From a virus: a DNA stretch of 64,000 nt. The notes beneath the pieces were generated by a model. The model saw only the letters and a program-made list of their open reading frames with translations. It was not told where the DNA came from and ran no database searches. Position 1 is the first letter of the stretch. The number at the start of each line of letters is the position of its first letter. A program made the position numbers and the translations under genes. Positions 1,324-12,190 of the stretch are shown here, piece by piece. The stretch covers positions 1 to 64,000 of IMG/VR virus record IMGVR_UViG_3300044797_000094; one strand, given 5' to 3'.

Positions 1324-1360
1324 AAACTGTTGACAAATAGTATCGAATGTCGATCAGAAT
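1324..1360 (+). promoter_or_regulatory. Sigma70-like promoter overlapping a degenerate copy of the 16-bp operator
   Basis: AAACTGTTGACAAATA (1324-1339) contains TTGACA (1330-1335). Candidate -10 CAGAAT (1355-1360) has a long 19-nt spacer. Confidence 0.45.
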
Positions 1361-1364
1361 TTAC

Positions 1365-1494
1365 GTTCCCTCGGCTTGAGGGATCATGCCTGTGGACGGC
1401 TCGACAATCCTGAAACCGGCAATGGAATCGGGGCGGAGTCGGTTGAAGCAGGAGCTAAACCGTGTCCACTTTTAGGCACATTTTAGAGAGCAGG
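1365..1494 (+). ncRNA. Orphan IS607/TnpB-type omega-RNA (reRNA) scaffold
   Basis: Hallmark order hairpin-GCCTGTGGA...TGAAGCAGGA-CTAAACCGTG hairpin-TTTAGAGAGCAGG. Stems pair: TCCCTC/GAGGGA, CCTG/CAGG, CGGCTC/GAGTCG, a GCAA tetraloop, CTAAA/TTTAG. Loop GCTT can pair with the 3' GAGC as a pseudoknot. Confidence 0.6.
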
Positions 1495-1504
1495 ACGACG
1501 AATT

Positions 1505-1732
1505 ATGAAAGAAATCTACATCGTGACAATTGGTCTGGCGGCGTGCCTGTTATTCGTTGCCACGATAACACGGCAGCCTGAAGAGATCTGGAGCGACGAT
1601 AAGGAATCGTTTCGCCGCGAATGGGTGGCGAGAGAGGGAAGTCTGGACGAATTCGGTCGACATATCAATCCGGACGGAACGCTCGTGGATCAAGAGGTGA
1701 CTCGAAAGGAACCTGGCGATGACGCCGCTTGA
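1505..1732 (+). CDS. Small protein with N-terminal membrane/signal segment
   Basis: Hydrophobic N-terminus IYIVTIGLAACLLFVATI. Confidence 0.55.
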   Translation: MKEIYIVTIGLAACLLFVATITRQPEEIWSDDKESFRREWVAREGSLDEFGRHINPDGTLVDQEVTRKEPGDDAA

Positions 1733-3264: not shown

Positions 3265-4041
3265 GTGGCCAGTAAAATTATTCAAGGCGACATCCCACCC
3301 GGCGGCACGATCACCGGAAAAGTGTTCGATCGAAACACGGGGGCATTGATCAGCACATCTGGAGATTTGTCATTCTCGCAAACCGGAGCGAATCCGCTTT
3401 TCAACCAAGCGACGATGACTGATGCGGCGATCGGAACACAGGTCATTGTCCTGTATAGAAATGGATCTGCGTTCGCGGATTATCTGATCGACTTTCCACA
3501 AACTGAGACGGCGGGGAGCTACGATTTTCAGGATTCTCCTACAGTGGCCGATATTGCCGCCGGAATTGTCGATCTTGACATTAAGATCGTCGTCGCAATT
3601 CCTCCAGCGGTGGCGACCGGAAGCCTTACACCAGGCCAGATCACATGCACTCGCGGCGACACATTGGCCGTGACTAACGGGACGACTGTCGCGCTTTTGG
3701 GAAATATTTCGGCCAGAACGAAGCTGAGTTTCACGGCGAAACTGCCTTGGGCCGTTCAGAATTCAGCGAATACCGATTCTCAGGCAATCATTCAGGTGGT
3801 GGAGGGAATCGGCCTCACAATTCTGAATGGCGCTCCAGCGTCAAATTCAGCTTATGGAAGCCTGGTCGTGACAGACGCCTCAACGGGCGTCTTTACTCTC
3901 ACAATCGCCGCACAAGCCACGGCGGCGATTCCAATTGAGGATCTGCTGTGGGATGTGCAAGTCGAATTCGCATCCAACATTTCGACGCCGATCAACGGGA
4001 CATTCTCGATCGCGCCTGATGTGACGCAGGCGACGAATTAA
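3265..4041 (+). CDS. Virion structural protein with a C-terminal Ig-like/BppU-like domain
   Basis: 'RGDTL...FTAK...G.FTLTI....TA.....LLWDVQV...GTF.I..DVT' pattern. Confidence 0.6.
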   Translation: MASKIIQGDIPPGGTITGKVFDRNTGALISTSGDLSFSQTGANPLFNQATMTDAAIGTQVIVLYRNGSAFADYLIDFPQTETAGSYDFQDSPTVADIAAGIVDLDIKIVVAIPPAVATGSLTPGQITCTRGDTLAVTNGTTVALLGNISARTKLSFTAKLPWAVQNSANTDSQAIIQVVEGIGLTILNGAPASNSAYGSLVVTDASTGVFTLTIAAQATAAIPIEDLLWDVQVEFASNISTPINGTFSIAPDVTQATN

Positions 4042-4901: not shown

Positions 4902-5597
4902 ATGCCGGGAAAGAGGACAAGAAAACGAGATCGAATTTGGAAAGAACGCGAACGCGAAGCGAAGCGAGTGGAAGCCGAAAATCAAGCGGCGCCAATTCGG
5001 CCAGAAGAAATAACGACTGCTGATTTAGTCGCCGAAAAGACTGGAAAAAGCGGCGTCACGTATATTCCAGAGATCGTTTCTGGCATGGATGATGGGGAAG
5101 GGGGAAAAGTAATTCGCCCCGCCGAAATCGCGATTGCGAGGCGGGCGATTCGGGAAGACTGGCCGCTCGAACCGGAGAAGCGAAATCAGCTCATGGAAGA
5201 GTTATACAAAGTCGCGATGACGAAGCCGAAAATTGTGGCCGGCGCACCTGATCCAGGTCGGGCAATCCGGGTTTCATCGACGACCCGCGTCCTTGCGATG
5301 CGAACGCTCGTGATGGCCGATGGAATCAACGCCAAACGAGAGCAAATCGACGTAACCGCCGCCAGAGCGAATCTTGGCGTCAAAGTCAACGTAAACGTCG
5401 GCGTCAGCGTGTCTCAGCATGTTCAGGCCGCTGTCGCGGCGGAGCCGGAATATTTGGAGTGGTTGCGTGAGCGAGCCTACCCCGCAGATCGAGACGCCGA
5501 TGCTTTGGGCCGCGACGATCTCAAAACGGAAATTCTTACTGCCGACGCATGTCAGGGTGATGGACAAGGCGGTGACGGACACGATTCAGGGAATTGA
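4902..5597 (+). CDS. terS: Probable terminase small subunit
   Basis: Lies immediately upstream of and overlaps TerL; helical protein with a 'VNVNVGV' C-terminal strand. Confidence 0.55.
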   Translation: MPGKRTRKRDRIWKEREREAKRVEAENQAAPIRPEEITTADLVAEKTGKSGVTYIPEIVSGMDDGEGGKVIRPAEIAIARRAIREDWPLEPEKRNQLMEELYKVAMTKPKIVAGAPDPGRAIRVSSTTRVLAMRTLVMADGINAKREQIDVTAARANLGVKVNVNVGVSVSQHVQAAVAAEPEYLEWLRERAYPADRDADALGRDDLKTEILTADACQGDGQGGDGHDSGN

Positions 5598-6951
5598 CGG
5601 CATTCGGCGGTTGATGATTTGCATGCCGCCTCGGCACGGCAAAAGTTCGTACGCCTCTCAATATTTCCCGTCCTGGTTTCTCGGTACGTTCCCAGACAAG
5701 CGTGTGATCCTCACGAGTTATGAAGCGTCATTCGCGGCCACATGGGGACGGAAGGCTAGAAACCTTTTGGAAGAACACGGTGGACTCTTTGGCGTTCGCG
5801 TCGCATCGTCGCCCAGTGCCGCCGATCAATGGGACATCGAAGGAAATACGGGCGGGATGGTGACGGCTGGGGTCGGCGGCCCAATTACTGGCCGCGGCGC
5901 GGACTGTGCAATTATCGACGACGCCTTAAAAAACTTTGAGGAAGCGTCATCGCAACTTATTCGGGATAAGATTTGGGACTGGTGGCAGTCGACGTTGTAT
6001 ACTCGCCTTGAGCCTAACGCCGTGGTCGTGATGGTAATGACTCGGTGGCATGAAGACGACCTCTGCGGACGAATCATCGCAAGCGTCAAGTCCGGCGAAA
6101 GTGAACGCTGGCGAATGCTTCGCCTTCCAGCGATAAACAGTCAGAATCTCGCGCTATGGCCAGAGCGATATTCATTGAAGGATCTTCATCAGATTCGTCG
6201 ATCAGTCGGCCCGCATCATTGGGAAGCCCTCTACCAGCAAAATCCGACGGCGAGGGAGGGTTCTTTCTTCAAGGTCAACAAGTTCAATTATGCGCCTTCG
6301 GAACCAATTGGGCTTCGGACTGTCCGAGCGTGGGACTTGGCCGCGACGGAAGGCGACGGCGACTACACGGCGGGAGTGAGGATCGGCATCGACAATGAAG
6401 GGCGAGTTTACGTCTGCCATGTCCAACGCGGCCAATGGGCGACGGACGAACGGGACCGATGGTTGAAATCGACGGCGGTTGAAGACGGCTATGGAACGAT
6501 GATTCATTTGGCGGAAGACCCAGGCCAGGCGTCGAAATCGCAGATGCTGACGCTTTCCCGTCTACTGAACGGATTCAGCGTCAAAAGCCTTCGTGTGACC
6601 GGCAAGAAAACCACGCGGGCCGACTCGTTCAGTTCTCAAGTGAATATGGGAAACGTCTGGCTTGTGAAGGGAAGCTGGAACGGTCCCTACATCGAAGAAT
6701 TGAGGCAATTCGACAAAGGTAAAAATGATGATCAAATCGACGCATCGGCCGACGCCTACAATGAATTGACGCAAACCACAAATCAATATTACGTCGCGAC
6801 CGGAGGCGACAGAGACGACCGAGAAATTGAGCATCATCCCTATGGCGGCATGGTGGAAAAAGACGACGATTTAGAAGAAACTCCGCCTCCAAAAATAGAC
6901 AAGCCCGTTTCGTATCCGTATCACGTGGGCGGCACAGATCGAGTCTACTGA
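5419..6951 (+). CDS. terL: Terminase large subunit (true start probably about 5467-5500)
   Basis: Walker A MPPRHGKS, Walker B CAIIDD, MTRWHEDDL motif, nuclease motifs AWDLA and NDDQIDA. Confidence 0.95.
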   Translation: MFRPLSRRSRNIWSGCVSEPTPQIETPMLWAATISKRKFLLPTHVRVMDKAVTDTIQGIDGIRRLMICMPPRHGKSSYASQYFPSWFLGTFPDKRVILTSYEASFAATWGRKARNLLEEHGGLFGVRVASSPSAADQWDIEGNTGGMVTAGVGGPITGRGADCAIIDDALKNFEEASSQLIRDKIWDWWQSTLYTRLEPNAVVVMVMTRWHEDDLCGRIIASVKSGESERWRMLRLPAINSQNLALWPERYSLKDLHQIRRSVGPHHWEALYQQNPTAREGSFFKVNKFNYAPSEPIGLRTVRAWDLAATEGDGDYTAGVRIGIDNEGRVYVCHVQRGQWATDERDRWLKSTAVEDGYGTMIHLAEDPGQASKSQMLTLSRLLNGFSVKSLRVTGKKTTRADSFSSQVNMGNVWLVKGSWNGPYIEELRQFDKGKNDDQIDASADAYNELTQTTNQYYVATGGDRDDREIEHHPYGGMVEKDDDLEETPPPKIDKPVSYPYHVGGTDRVY

Positions 6952-7915: not shown

Positions 7916-8272
7916 ATGAACGATCCGCTTCTCTATGCGATCATTGGGCACCTCGTCGGTGACTTTATGGTCCAAAACGACTGGCAGGCAGCTAACAAAA
8001 AGACATCATCGATCGCGTGCGGGATTCATGCGTTCCTTTGGACAATGTGTGTGCTCGCTTCATCGATGTGGTGGAACCCGATAATCGCAGCATGGTTATT
8101 CGTGACTCATTTCGGGATTGATCGAACGAACTTCGTCAAACGGTGGATGGAGTTTAATGGTCAATCGCAATTCATGACTGGCCCGCTGTCTCCTTGGTCG
8201 ATTGTGGTCGTCGACAATATCTGGCATATTCTCACAATCGTCGCCTGCGACAGGTATTTGGCTTGGAGTTGA
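7916..8272 (+). CDS. DUF3307-like membrane protein
   Basis: GHLVGDF.VQ...H...THFGID...DNIWH His/Asp motif set. Confidence 0.8.
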   Translation: MNDPLLYAIIGHLVGDFMVQNDWQAANKKTSSIACGIHAFLWTMCVLASSMWWNPIIAAWLFVTHFGIDRTNFVKRWMEFNGQSQFMTGPLSPWSIVVVDNIWHILTIVACDRYLAWS

Positions 8273-8505: not shown

Positions 8506-8887
8506 AGACGTCAAGATCAGTATTCCCCTCAGGGAAATCATAGCCATGAACGAATCCGTAAAAGCCACGCCGGAAATACGTCGGCGAATCAAACTGAAAT
8601 CAATCCTTGATCGCTGGTCGACCTGCACAATCAGCGTGGAAGACGCGGAAACAGAATTGAGCGATCTTCTGGCGTCGAAGGAACTCGGCCCGCTCGACGT
8701 CCAAAGCGGAAAACTGAAGATCACCTCCGAGCGTGGCATGGCGTTCGATACCATGGTTGAAATCAATGGCCAATCATTCGACTGGGGCGAAAAACTGACG
8801 CTGATCATTGAGGCCGGGATGAAAAATCGTATCCTGATCGAAGGATGCCCGGTTAATTTTGACGGTCCGAAAAAGGAACAATCGTGA
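8495..8887 (+). CDS. Hypothetical protein sharing a W[ST]xCTISxED motif with the ClpN protein
   Basis: LKSILDRWSTCTISVEDAETEL versus LRSLLTKWTACTISLEDFNTEM. Confidence 0.55.
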   Translation: MSYKDVKISIPLREIIAMNESVKATPEIRRRIKLKSILDRWSTCTISVEDAETELSDLLASKELGPLDVQSGKLKITSERGMAFDTMVEINGQSFDWGEKLTLIIEAGMKNRILIEGCPVNFDGPKKEQS

Positions 8888-10680
8888 GTGCCACGACGCC
8901 ATATCCGTTCATCGAACCAACGGGCGTCTACGGCTGGCCAACACAATTCATGCCGGCGTCGACCGCAGTACTCGACTGGAACTACCTTGACGATTTTAAC
9001 CCGTCAACAATCGCGGCGGTTCCGGCTCAAGGGTCTGGTTCCTCCATTTTCTCATCGCCGGATGAATATGAACCGGCATCGTTTGTCATCGTGGCGGCGT
9101 CTCAGATGGATGACGTTGTGGTCTCTGTCTCTGATCTCGGCAATGGCGGTGATACAATCCCGTCCGAGAATGTCACGATTCGTCGCGTCGTACGAACTCC
9201 GATGCGGAATCTCTACACTGATGCGGCCCATCTGACGACGGTTGGGCGATTTTTGCCCACATGGTCGGCTCTCACGATTCCCGCTGGTGAGTTTCGCCAG
9301 GTATGGCTGACTGTCCACGTGCCGCCGGGAACGAAGGCTGCAACCTACGCCGGGACGGTCAGGATCAGTTCGTCTCAGGGCTCGATCAATTGGCCGCTGT
9401 CCGTTGAAGTCCTGCCGATTCAACTTCTCAGCGATCCGGGCAAGACGCTCGGAATGCAATACAACCTGCAACAGCGATTGGCCGATGTCAGAACGGGCGC
9501 GGCGACGACGGAATTGATAACGCAGGAAATTGCCGATCTTGCGGCGCATGGCGTGACGTCGATCGTGCCGAGCCTGCAGATCGATTTCTTCAAGAATTCT
9601 TCCGGCGAGCCTTATTACGATCTCACGAACTTCGTGACGGGAATGAATCTCCTGCTAGACGTGGGGATCGAATGGACTGCGATCGTTGTCCTGCCGAACC
9701 TGAACGAATTGGCTCTGTTGTTAGGTCATACCGACGTGTTCGATCCGACGGCGGGAACAATAGGGGACGGCGCTTCGTTGGCGGCGGATGCGACGTTCCA
9801 AATGATTGCGAAGGCGGCGATCCAGGCTTTGCACGGAACAATCAGCGGCCTGAAGCTCTCGTCGAAACAGACATTCGAGGTGATCTATAAGAATCTGGAC
9901 GAGATCTTCGACGACCAATTCGACGGTTCGCAGGCCCCTTTATACGTTCAGTACGCCAAAACATGTCAAAATGTACCGGGATTGACGCTTGGAACGACGC
10001 TTTCCACCAGGAACGCCACAGAGATTTCGGAACTAACGACTGTCGCTCCCTACGTCGCCGTGCCGATCAATCAGGGCTTTACATTTGAATGGTATCTTGC
10101 CACGCCAGGAAGCTCGGTGCAGACGTATCTCAACTTCCTGAAAGCCATGAAGCAGACGGCGTGGTTCTACCATAACGAACGCGGGGCGTATCATACGCCT
10201 GCATGGAAGCGGATCATCAACGGCGTCTACTTCTGGTCGATGCCGTTCGCGTGCCATATTCCGTGGTGCTATCAATACGACGAAGTCGCGAACCCCTTCG
10301 ACGCGAGCGCCGGTGACAAATTCAATGACTTCGGGTTCTCGTTTTCCAATGCGCCAGGGTCGACGACGTTCGTGCCGACGCGAAGCTGGGAAGCCATGCG
10401 TGAAGGATGGGACGACGTCCGGTATTTCCACACGCTTCAACAAGCGATGGCGACGCCGGGAATTTCAGCGGAGAGCCTTGCGTCCGCGCATCAGTTTTTC
10501 TCCAGACTCCAGGCGTTAATCGAGAGTGTAGACCTGGCAGGATACGAGCCGGAGGCGGGACTCGCGAAGGAATCGCCAATCATATCGTGGCTCGCAAGCA
10601 GGATGACGGGGGCTGATTGGCAGTTACTGAGAAAAGAGGCGGCATATTTGATCGTCGAAATACAAGGGTCCGGGACATGA
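8884..10680 (+). CDS. Glycoside hydrolase-like protein (GH123/DUF4091-like architecture)
   Basis: EYEPASF N-domain, 'QVWLTVHVP....ATYAGTV', and C-terminal 'PTRSWEAMREGWDDVRY'. Confidence 0.7.
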   Translation: MSATTPYPFIEPTGVYGWPTQFMPASTAVLDWNYLDDFNPSTIAAVPAQGSGSSIFSSPDEYEPASFVIVAASQMDDVVVSVSDLGNGGDTIPSENVTIRRVVRTPMRNLYTDAAHLTTVGRFLPTWSALTIPAGEFRQVWLTVHVPPGTKAATYAGTVRISSSQGSINWPLSVEVLPIQLLSDPGKTLGMQYNLQQRLADVRTGAATTELITQEIADLAAHGVTSIVPSLQIDFFKNSSGEPYYDLTNFVTGMNLLLDVGIEWTAIVVLPNLNELALLLGHTDVFDPTAGTIGDGASLAADATFQMIAKAAIQALHGTISGLKLSSKQTFEVIYKNLDEIFDDQFDGSQAPLYVQYAKTCQNVPGLTLGTTLSTRNATEISELTTVAPYVAVPINQGFTFEWYLATPGSSVQTYLNFLKAMKQTAWFYHNERGAYHTPAWKRIINGVYFWSMPFACHIPWCYQYDEVANPFDASAGDKFNDFGFSFSNAPGSTTFVPTRSWEAMREGWDDVRYFHTLQQAMATPGISAESLASAHQFFSRLQALIESVDLAGYEPEAGLAKESPIISWLASRMTGADWQLLRKEAAYLIVEIQGSGT

Positions 10681-11179: not shown

Positions 11180-11440
11180 AAACGTTTCTGCCTCAAAACT
11201 ACCCCGGTTGCCTAAAAAGTCAGGGTTTGGAAGAGGTTTTAAGGCAAAGCCCGATCGTCAACCTGTGCAAGCCGCGATCAAGAACGCGCTAATGAAAAAC
11301 CGATGTCCATTAAATCTCGATGATACAAAAAAGGAATAATCATGTGCGGAATGGGATATTGGAACGGGGAAGGATTCAAGCCGGCTGAGGCACGAGCGAA
11401 AATCGCCTTTCTCGCGTTTCATGATGAAAAAGGGTCGACC

Positions 11441-12190
11441 ATGTATGAGAGCTGGACCGACAGATCCCGTAAAGTTATGCAATTGGCGAATCAAGAAGCC
11501 CGGCGATTCAACCACGAGTACATTGGCACCGAGCACATCTTGCTTGGCCTGGTCAAGGAAGGATGCGGCGTCGGGGCGAAGATTCTGGAAGGCCTTGGCG
11601 TCGATATGCAAAAGGTCCGATTTCAAACCGAGAAGATCGTCGGCTCGGCGCCTGATCACATAATCATTGGAAATCTTCCGTTTAATGAAGACGCGATGAC
11701 GGTGATTGATCAATCCGGAAGGCAAGCTTATGTCTTGAATCACAAATACGTCGGAACGGAACACATCCTTTTAGCTATCTCGTCGTGTCCGAGTTCGATC
11801 GCTTATAAGATCCTTGTGGCTCTCGGAGTGGTCGGAGAAACAATCCAGCGTAGCATCGGAGAGATCATGGAGGCAACTCCGGCGATGCCAGGCGAAATGA
11901 CAATCAAACTTCCCGAGTATTTTTCTACCATCCTGTCAAAAACAGAGCCCGTCGCAGTCGGAATCGCCGAACCGAGCGCGAAGAAAGCGTACGAATACGC
12001 AATGAAAGCGTGGAAACAAAAGCGGCTTCAAGATCTTCGCTCTCTTCTTACAAAATGGACCGCTTGCACAATCTCGCTTGAAGATTTCAATACCGAGATG
12101 GAAAAGCTGTACGAATGGATAGACATGGATGCGGCAATCAAGCTGCCGCAGAGCGTCGCTCCGCAATCTGACGTTACGAAAATCGACTGA
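11441..12190 (+). CDS. Stand-alone ClpC N-terminal (Clp repeat) domain protein, no AAA+ modules
   Basis: MYESWTDRSRKVMQLANQEARRFNHEYIGTEHILLGL and a second repeat HKYVGTEHILLA. Confidence 0.9.
   Translation: MYESWTDRSRKVMQLANQEARRFNHEYIGTEHILLGLVKEGCGVGAKILEGLGVDMQKVRFQTEKIVGSAPDHIIIGNLPFNEDAMTVIDQSGRQAYVLNHKYVGTEHILLAISSCPSSIAYKILVALGVVGETIQRSIGEIMEATPAMPGEMTIKLPEYFSTILSKTEPVAVGIAEPSAKKAYEYAMKAWKQKRLQDLRSLLTKWTACTISLEDFNTEMEKLYEWIDMDAAIKLPQSVAPQSDVTKID

Follow-up and report, generated by a model that had tools for sequence, protein, structure and literature searches.

A probable truncated IS607 right end with a TnpB-type omega-RNA scaffold in the leader of a phage gene

Does a short structured stretch between two genes of a virus from peat encode a guide RNA that works without a nuclease of its own, or is it what remains of a transposon? 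The locus lies near the start of the window, by which we mean the whole stretch of 64,000 nucleotides that was analyzed (the first 64 kb of the 76,387-base IMG/VR virus record IMGVR_UViG_3300044797_000094, which was estimated to be 72% complete). The phage sequence originated from peat metagenomes, and the stretch was found as contigs in two peat DNA runs, one of them possibly the source of the record; the second run had no contig over positions 1298-1543. No RNA run with the sequence was found among the sequencing runs listed. The structured element sits in a 233-nt gap (1272-1504), and the genes around this gap are all on the same strand. Upstream are a tail-fibre-like gene (1-624) that matched minor tail and tail fibre PHROGs and a Gly-rich fibre-assembly-like gene (621-1271). 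The same-strand cassette downstream contains a gene for a 75-aa protein whose N terminus carries a hydrophobic segment (a membrane protein; 1505-1732, + strand) and a class-3 lipase gene (1719-2339, + strand); the large terminase gene (5419-6951) is located further downstream. A tRNA scan found no tRNA. The sequence-only reading had interpreted the locus as a TnpB-type omega-RNA that was kept without its nuclease, placed under its own promoter, and used in trans as a guide or decoy.

The structured unit was present with all of the pairings that had been proposed for it. Specifically, the spacer between the stop codon of the fibre-assembly-like gene and the putative transposon stump (1272-1345, + strand) contains an operator-like 16-mer (1324-1339) and a TTGACA sequence (1330-1335). 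Hairpin H1 (1367-1383, + strand) is formed by TCCCTC (1367-1372) and GAGGGA (1378-1383) around the loop GGCTT (1373-1377), and this loop provides the 5' strand of a pseudoknot in which GCTT (1374-1377) faces GAGC (1488-1491) on the + strand. The core equivalent to RAGATH-18 (1388-1454, + strand) consists of GCCTGTGGA, P1, P2, an inner hairpin, and TGAAGCAGGA. Within this core, P1 pairs CCTGT (1389-1393) with GCAGG (1448-1452), P2 pairs CGGCTC (1397-1402) with GAGTCG (1436-1441), and the inner hairpin (1408-1433) has the stem CCG/TGG and a GCAA cap (1419-1422), all on the + strand. Hairpin P3 (1455-1486, + strand) pairs CTAAA (1455-1459) with TTTAG (1482-1486) around GTGTC (1462-1466) and GGCAC (1475-1479); its folding energy was -8.1 kcal/mol, with 10 pairs and a z-score of -1.7. 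The predicted transposon right end (1488-1494, + strand) closes with the terminal AGCAGG (1489-1494). When the window sequence was folded alone, the z-scores were -0.7 to -1.5 on the + strand, which was within chance. The minimum-energy fold also contained a long-range helix (GCCUGUGGAC with GUCCAC..AGGC), which was rejected because CCUGU pairs with GCAGG across the family.

The series GCCTGTGGA...TGAAGCAGGA...AGCAGG had been put forward as the mark of IS607/IS605 right ends. A search for these three parts, spaced as in the window (25 letters searched), supported this idea; it retrieved 26 viral loci in IMG/VR and at least 120 metagenome loci, and most of these loci were directly 3' of IS607-type tnpB. 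By our own rough estimate, well below one chance match was expected in the viral collection. The end of a TnpB homologue fell within -80 to +96 nt of GCCTGTGGA in about 70% of the 146 matches listed. The Pfam domains HTH_OrfB_IS605, OrfB_IS605, and TNB were found in all four of the upstream ORFs tested, and the ORFs located just upstream of tnpB encoded a MerR-HTH serine recombinase (IS607 TnpA) in six of nine cases and a Y1 transposase in one of nine. The matches listed shared more than the searched letters, namely, an upstream hairpin with the loop GGCUN, a downstream hairpin, and the tail N-AGC-AGG, and their P2 sequences were variable yet always paired. Two copies in one phage contig (L169 and L182) had flanks that differed immediately past AGCAGG, and the right boundary of the element was therefore fixed at this point.

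We examined pairing across the family, starting with 59 TnpB-linked representatives among the matches listed. RNAalifold recovered H1, P1 (CCUGU/GCAGG), and the base of P2 in this set. When the model alignment of 98 sequences was scored, 96% of the cells were paired, compared to 68% after shuffling and 39-54% with slid partners, and 343 cells had changed on both sides. Covariation was strong in H1 and the P2 base, and P1 was invariant among the matches listed; H1 contained five covarying pairs, and 92% of its cells were paired. The H1 loop also covaried with the four bases ahead of the terminal AGG, as expected for the loop-to-3'-end pseudoknot that had been proposed. The combinations found among the matches listed were GCUA:UAGC (22), GUUC:GAGC (14), GCUU:AAGC (6), and GCUU:GAGC (4), and the window pseudoknot belongs to the last of these classes. 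A P3 hairpin was present in most members, with a median z-score of -2.7 over 109 members listed. The comparison of related sequences was decisive in favor of a real scaffold, despite the unremarkable fold of the single sequence.

To place the window RNA in a family, we built a covariance model (R1) from 55 TnpB-linked RNAs among the matches listed, with the window excluded. R1 matched 1359-1494 of the window over its full length (model positions 1-142 of 142) with 75.8 bits and an E value of 3e-14. This score has to be read with care, as searching for the relatives by a pattern taken from the window made 25 of the model positions invariant; H1, P2, and P3 do not depend on this pattern. The window score was in the middle of the family range (38.6-110 bits). 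This element was the only R1 match in the 76-kb record, indicating a single copy, and three loci suspected to be chance pattern matches (L206, L239, and L246) were unmatched by R1. In contrast, the Rfam model of RAGATH-18 (RF03064, gathering threshold of 44.9 bits) produced no match in the window and none at an E value of up to 10 when it was applied to 1200-1700. Thus, the two covariance models gave different answers for the window: the published RAGATH-18 model missed it and the model made from TnpB-linked relatives matched it. RF03064 scored 57-69 bits on the gut-phage relatives L162, L183, L290, and L168 but just 26-27 bits on L273, L208, and L180, and it had no match on the TnpB-linked loci L194, L286, and L229. 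Because RF03064 missed several TnpB-linked members, the Rfam model is narrower than the family. The signature loci, the Pfam TnpB domains, the R1 match, and the RF03064 matches on relatives together backed the assignment to a TnpB-type omega-RNA from an IS607/IS605 right end, and the predicted RNA in the window is a divergent member of the known TnpB guide-RNA family of the RAGATH-18 type.

R1 alone also found second scaffold copies on three of the contigs (L177 at 9562-9709, L230 at 3671-3821, and L235 at 8132-8261). These copies lack the exact signature and have, for example, GTCTGTGG or a terminal AGCAGA.

All of the helices in the window scaffold were intact (H1, P1, P2, the inner hairpin, P3, and the pseudoknot). 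The H1 core, CCCTCGGCTTGAGGG, is identical to that of the TnpB-linked loci L194, L197, and L235b, and the P3 sequence is similar to those of L194 and L235. When the invariant single-stranded letters of the family (GGA and UGAAGCAGGAA) were compared, the window agreed in 27 of the 28 columns that were conserved in at least 80% of members. It has G1454 after GCAGGA, where all 97 other members among the matches listed have A, and the interior of its P2 resembles none of the interior motifs that recur in the family.

The A-to-G change at 1454 creates AGGAG 7 nt 5' of a GTG at 1462. This GTG opens a 39-aa frame (1462-1581) that overlaps the start of the 75-aa gene; the layout of Shine-Dalgarno sequence and start codon is perfect and is probably meaningless.

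A further question was whether any of the tnpB gene had survived. The seven + strand codons at 1346-1366 (AAT GTC GAT CAG AAT TTA CGT) read N V D Q N L R, and those at 1346-1363 are a relic of the TnpB motif N-A-A-x-N-[LI]. In the window, 22 nt separate the start of this motif from H1, and the offset is identical in ten relatives (including L197, L194, L286, L273, L259, L220, and L258). Nine of the 11 conserved bases of the motif matched, for which we estimated by hand a chance of about 1e-4 at a fixed offset. The codons for the D-R-D catalytic residues, expected just 5' of the motif, have been replaced by unrelated sequence, and the left breakpoint is predicted at about 1340-1346 from the nine-of-11 motif match at the fixed offset. 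In the closest relatives listed (L194, L197, L259, L273, and L286), the tnpB frame crosses H1, P1, and P2, and its stop codon falls within P3. The window frame, similarly, is open from 1334 to a TAG at 1484-1486 and reads ...NVDQNLRSLGLRDHACGR...VEAGAKPCPLLGTF, and an in-frame TGA at 1331-1333 closes it upstream. The last ~47 tnpB codons therefore remain (1346-1486), and the 36-aa ORF predicted at 1376-1486 is the putative tail of tnpB and not a gene. When TnpB C termini were used as tblastn queries, the E values across 1345-1483 were 1.6e-4 to 2.9e-5, a similarity that is mostly imposed by conservation at the RNA level.

A longer tnpB relic reaching to 1300 (EQSHGIENC*QIVS) was rejected; 71 tblastn queries yielded E values of just 0.006-0.008. 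A broad TnpB C-terminal profile found nothing at the locus, and the nucleotide similarity of 1272-1363 to tnpB 3' regions was at chance level (best score of 22 against a null mean of 20.5, with 82 of 300 shuffles scoring as high). The predicted homologous block is 1346-1494, or 149 nt. The claim that no tnpB remnant lies upstream was thus contradicted by a stub of ~47 codons with NAAxNL at the family's 22-nt spacing.

No intact nuclease or transposase gene accompanied this stub. No tnpB, Y1 tnpA, or serine recombinase gene was detected in the 76-kb record, which is 72% complete, and no TnpB domain or ORF was found across those 76 kb, so the description of a guide-type RNA without a nuclease held for the available record. 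The situation is common in the family. We scored the state of tnpB in 58 distinct members among the matches listed that had at least 1.3 kb of upstream sequence; tnpB was intact in 31, broken or truncated in 17, and not detectable in 10. Members without an intact tnpB therefore accounted for 27 of 58 (~47%) among the matches listed.

The position of the element relative to the next gene was also typical. The start of the following ORF (at least 50 aa) was 4-13 nt past AGCAGG in 46 of 107 distinct members listed (43%), compared to 63 of 444 control positions, and in the window the start codon is 10 nt past the end of the element. The terminal AGG and the A that follows it make AGGA, 9 nt before the ATG of the 75-aa gene. 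Shine-Dalgarno-like 4-mers precede 51% of the large ORFs of this phage, compared to a background of 15%. The published target-adjacent motif (TAM) of an IS607 TnpB is AGGAG or GAGGG (PMC11061315). The landing site fits a TAM that looks like a Shine-Dalgarno sequence, and the elements appear to separate the ribosome-binding site from the start codon on insertion and to bring in a new AGG.

Two other groups of copies were observed. Four gene-less loci (L198, L212, L243, and L285) have AGGAG, a common left part of ~53 nt (A(A)GCTACC.GAGAAA...), the scaffold, and a start codon 6-9 nt further on, and they look like mobilised mini-IS607 elements; the gene downstream of L285 begins with MNLILLGAPGAG and resembles adenylate kinase. 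In addition, one Planctomycetota genome (G050) carries 12 copies of a divergent scaffold (GTCTGCGGA...GTTGAAACAGAAA) behind a tnpB-like coding sequence (L312 and L314-L324). This scaffold variant looks like an active IS family in that genome.

We also asked what a TnpB would read as the guide. The stretch beyond the predicted right end (1495-1514, + strand; ACGACGAATTATGAAAGAAA) is the leader plus the first codons of the 75-aa gene. The proposed guide, from about 1495, is thus simply the flank and start codon of this gene, and ACGACGAATTATGAAAG had no second target in the phage genome beyond chance. The features of a TldR guide RNA were likewise absent, as there was no TnpB-like ORF in the 76 kb and no second match to the guide beyond chance.

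The proposal of a dedicated promoter within an accessory regulon was not supported. No -10 box lies 16-18 nt from the TTGACA at 1330-1335, and a promoter scan found no + strand promoter there; a CAGAAT lies 19 nt away. The site at 1324 matches the operator sequence described below at 12 of 16 positions, a grade that the window reaches at 15 sites (several intragenic), compared to about four in shuffles (up to four mismatches). With all neighboring genes in one orientation and no terminator detected around the locus, transcription of the scaffold by read-through of the operon would be the simpler expectation.

The operator sequence itself, the 16-bp quasi-palindrome AAATTGTTGACGATTT, occurs with zero to two mismatches directly ahead of TTGACA-N16/17-TAnnAT promoters elsewhere in the window (19143, 21588, 23324, 32769, 45577 on the - strand, and 62465). 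A phage regulator probably uses the dispersed copies as its operator.

The relatives of the surrounding genes were examined for clues to the host. GenBank phages produced no blastn match, and searches of IMG/VR with the 75-aa protein, the lipase, or a 598-aa ORF (8884-10680) identified no close relatives. The closest lipase homologues (P0002-P0008; 51-56% identity) came only from ENA/Logan, and loci found with a lipase profile in IMG/VR and GTDB were at most 47% identical and had nothing resembling the spacer beside them. Every named relative of a ClpC-N-domain protein (11342-12190) was in Planctomycetota (Pirellulales, Gemmataceae, Planctomyces, and Phycisphaerae), and the best GTDB relative of the lipase (1719-2339) was a Gemmataceae metagenome-assembled genome. 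Because these relatives all belong to that phylum, the phage host is probably a planctomycete. R1 was applied to 151 sampled Planctomycetota genomes; two had matches, one of them with 12 copies, and these copies were 51-58% identical to the window scaffold.

How does the predicted RNA compare with known guide RNAs? RAGATH-18 (RF03064) has been identified as the reRNA of IS607 TnpB from ISFba1 (Cell Res 2024, PMC11061315), and 64% of 16,029 RAGATH-18 RNAs adjoin an IS607 TnpB gene, whereas 36% do not (PMC11061315). The ISFba1 scaffold is 187 nt long and has two pseudoknots, and its 5'-most bases form PK2, which is important for complex formation (PMC11061315). Like the ISFba1 reRNA, the window RNA has P1 (CCUGU/GCAGG), the GGA bulge, P2, and the UGAAGCAGGA strand, it has hairpins on both sides of the core and a pseudoknotted fold, and its scaffold ends at the transposon right boundary, beyond which flanking DNA would serve as the guide. 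Unlike the RAGATH-18 consensus, its P2 interior lacks the E-loop/k-turn letters, and G1454 takes the place of the last conserved A. It also differs from ISFba1 in that no tnpB gene lies in front of it and the homologous part is 149 nt long rather than 187 nt. In the window's subgroup, moreover, the RNA overlaps the 3' end of tnpB, whereas the ISFba1-type reRNA is separate from the coding sequence (PMC11061315). According to the account in PMC10691335, which cites Altae-Tran 2021, standalone omega-RNAs without an effector have been published and are reported to act in trans. The window scaffold is like those described there in having no adjacent nuclease or transposase gene. As that account presents them, however, the standalone omega-RNAs are copies that have been mobilised and occur in genomes that also carry effector loci, whereas the window has one copy and no effector in 76 kb, and, unlike them, the window scaffold bears a tnpB codon relic that marks a truncation.

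Taken together, the results make it probable that 1346-1494, which now lies in the leader of the 75-aa gene, represents an IS607 right end after truncation, with the last ~47 codons of tnpB and an omega-RNA scaffold of the RAGATH-18 type. An IS607 element would first have landed in front of the 75-aa gene, parting its start codon from its Shine-Dalgarno sequence, as is usual for insertions of the family; the site before insertion would have read as the Shine-Dalgarno sequence followed directly by ACGACGAATTATG. A later deletion or recombination junction would then have removed tnpA and nearly all of tnpB, up to ~1340-1346. The remnant would since have been carried in the leader of the downstream operon and transcribed with it, and its terminal AGG(A) would now occupy the position of the ribosome-binding site of the 75-aa gene. 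If the element is such a remnant, the "guide" is a mere flank of the kind common to every such insertion, and the stump, without TnpB, has no activity of its own. With its helices intact and its R1 score mid-range, the element may have been truncated recently, or the RNA may still be under selection.

The main competing idea was that the scaffold still works as a guide. It would be a functional standalone omega-RNA that is loaded in trans by a compatible IS607 TnpB from the host or from the unseen 28% of the phage, and it would cut ACGACGAATTATGAAAG... flanked by AGGAG/GAGGG in relatives with an uninterrupted site, leading to homing of the insert or exclusion of competing phages. We regarded this as rather unlikely. 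The intact helices and pseudoknot, the mid-range R1 score, and the trans activity reported for standalone omega-RNAs in the PMC10691335 account of Altae-Tran 2021 are what such a guide would lead one to expect, and the family is present in the probable host phylum (two of 151 genomes, one with 12 copies). The Planctomycetota copies, however, are just 51-58% identical to the window scaffold, and no TnpB was found within the 76-kb record. Several features of the locus itself also argue against guide function: the invariant A is mutated (G1454), the P2 interior is divergent and matches no conserved motif, the guide has no second target, and only 149 nt are homologous, compared to the 187 nt needed by ISFba1, whose 5'-most bases form PK2 (PMC11061315). 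A more specific version, in which the stump loads a TnpB from the planctomycete host or the unseen part of the phage and drives itself by targeting the uninterrupted junction of Shine-Dalgarno sequence and ATG in related phages, seemed quite unlikely to us.

Two other explanations do without guide activity. The scaffold could be an exapted cis-regulatory leader that tunes how well the mRNA for the 75-aa protein and lipase is translated, or how stable it is, independently of TnpB. It does lie immediately 5' of the ribosome-binding site (AGGA-N9-ATG), with its Shine-Dalgarno-like AGG tail adjoining the pseudoknot strand; this same geometry, however, follows from the insertion preference of the family with no need for selection. 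The helices have been retained though the nuclease gene was lost, but the fold of the single sequence is unexceptional, and we considered a regulatory role very improbable. Least probable of all was a complete gene-less mini-IS607 element (PATE/MITE-like) with both ends present that TnpA could mobilise in trans. Its left end would be near GAGGG (1295-1299) or GGAG (1303-1306), one of which would be the target-adjacent motif. Such units are known in the family (L198, L212, L243, and L285), and the distance from GGAG at 1303-1306 to the start of the guide is ~188 nt, near the 187 nt of the ISFba1 scaffold. The window element, however, has no similarity to the left part of those four elements, is present as a single copy in the genome, and shows no repeats, terminal or subterminal, that would link 1272-1366 to the right end, and the tnpB codon relic at 1346-1363 points to truncation inside a gene and not to a clean left end. 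Both candidate motifs were rejected as the target motif of a complete mini-element since there was neither a shared left part nor end repeats.

If the scaffold did act as a guide in trans, this would be a rare phage with a guide but no nuclease, and a guide-only drive, if real, would mean that an insert spreads by homing, or has its competitors cut, without a nuclease of its own. As a truncated IS607 right end, the finding is an ordinary one. Elements of this kind are already known, and the window element is one more, rather degraded, gutted IS607 copy in a family in which tnpB is no longer intact in nearly half of the members sampled. For the family, the broader model R1 recovers TnpB guide RNAs beyond the single subgroup seen by the RAGATH-18 model. 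In one subgroup the RNA overlaps the tnpB frame, so that short "ORFs" in such spacers are tnpB tails. Finally, the position of the right ends 4-13 nt ahead of a start codon in 43% of cases, which fits a TAM resembling a ribosome-binding site, explains why these scaffolds turn up as "structured leaders" of genes.
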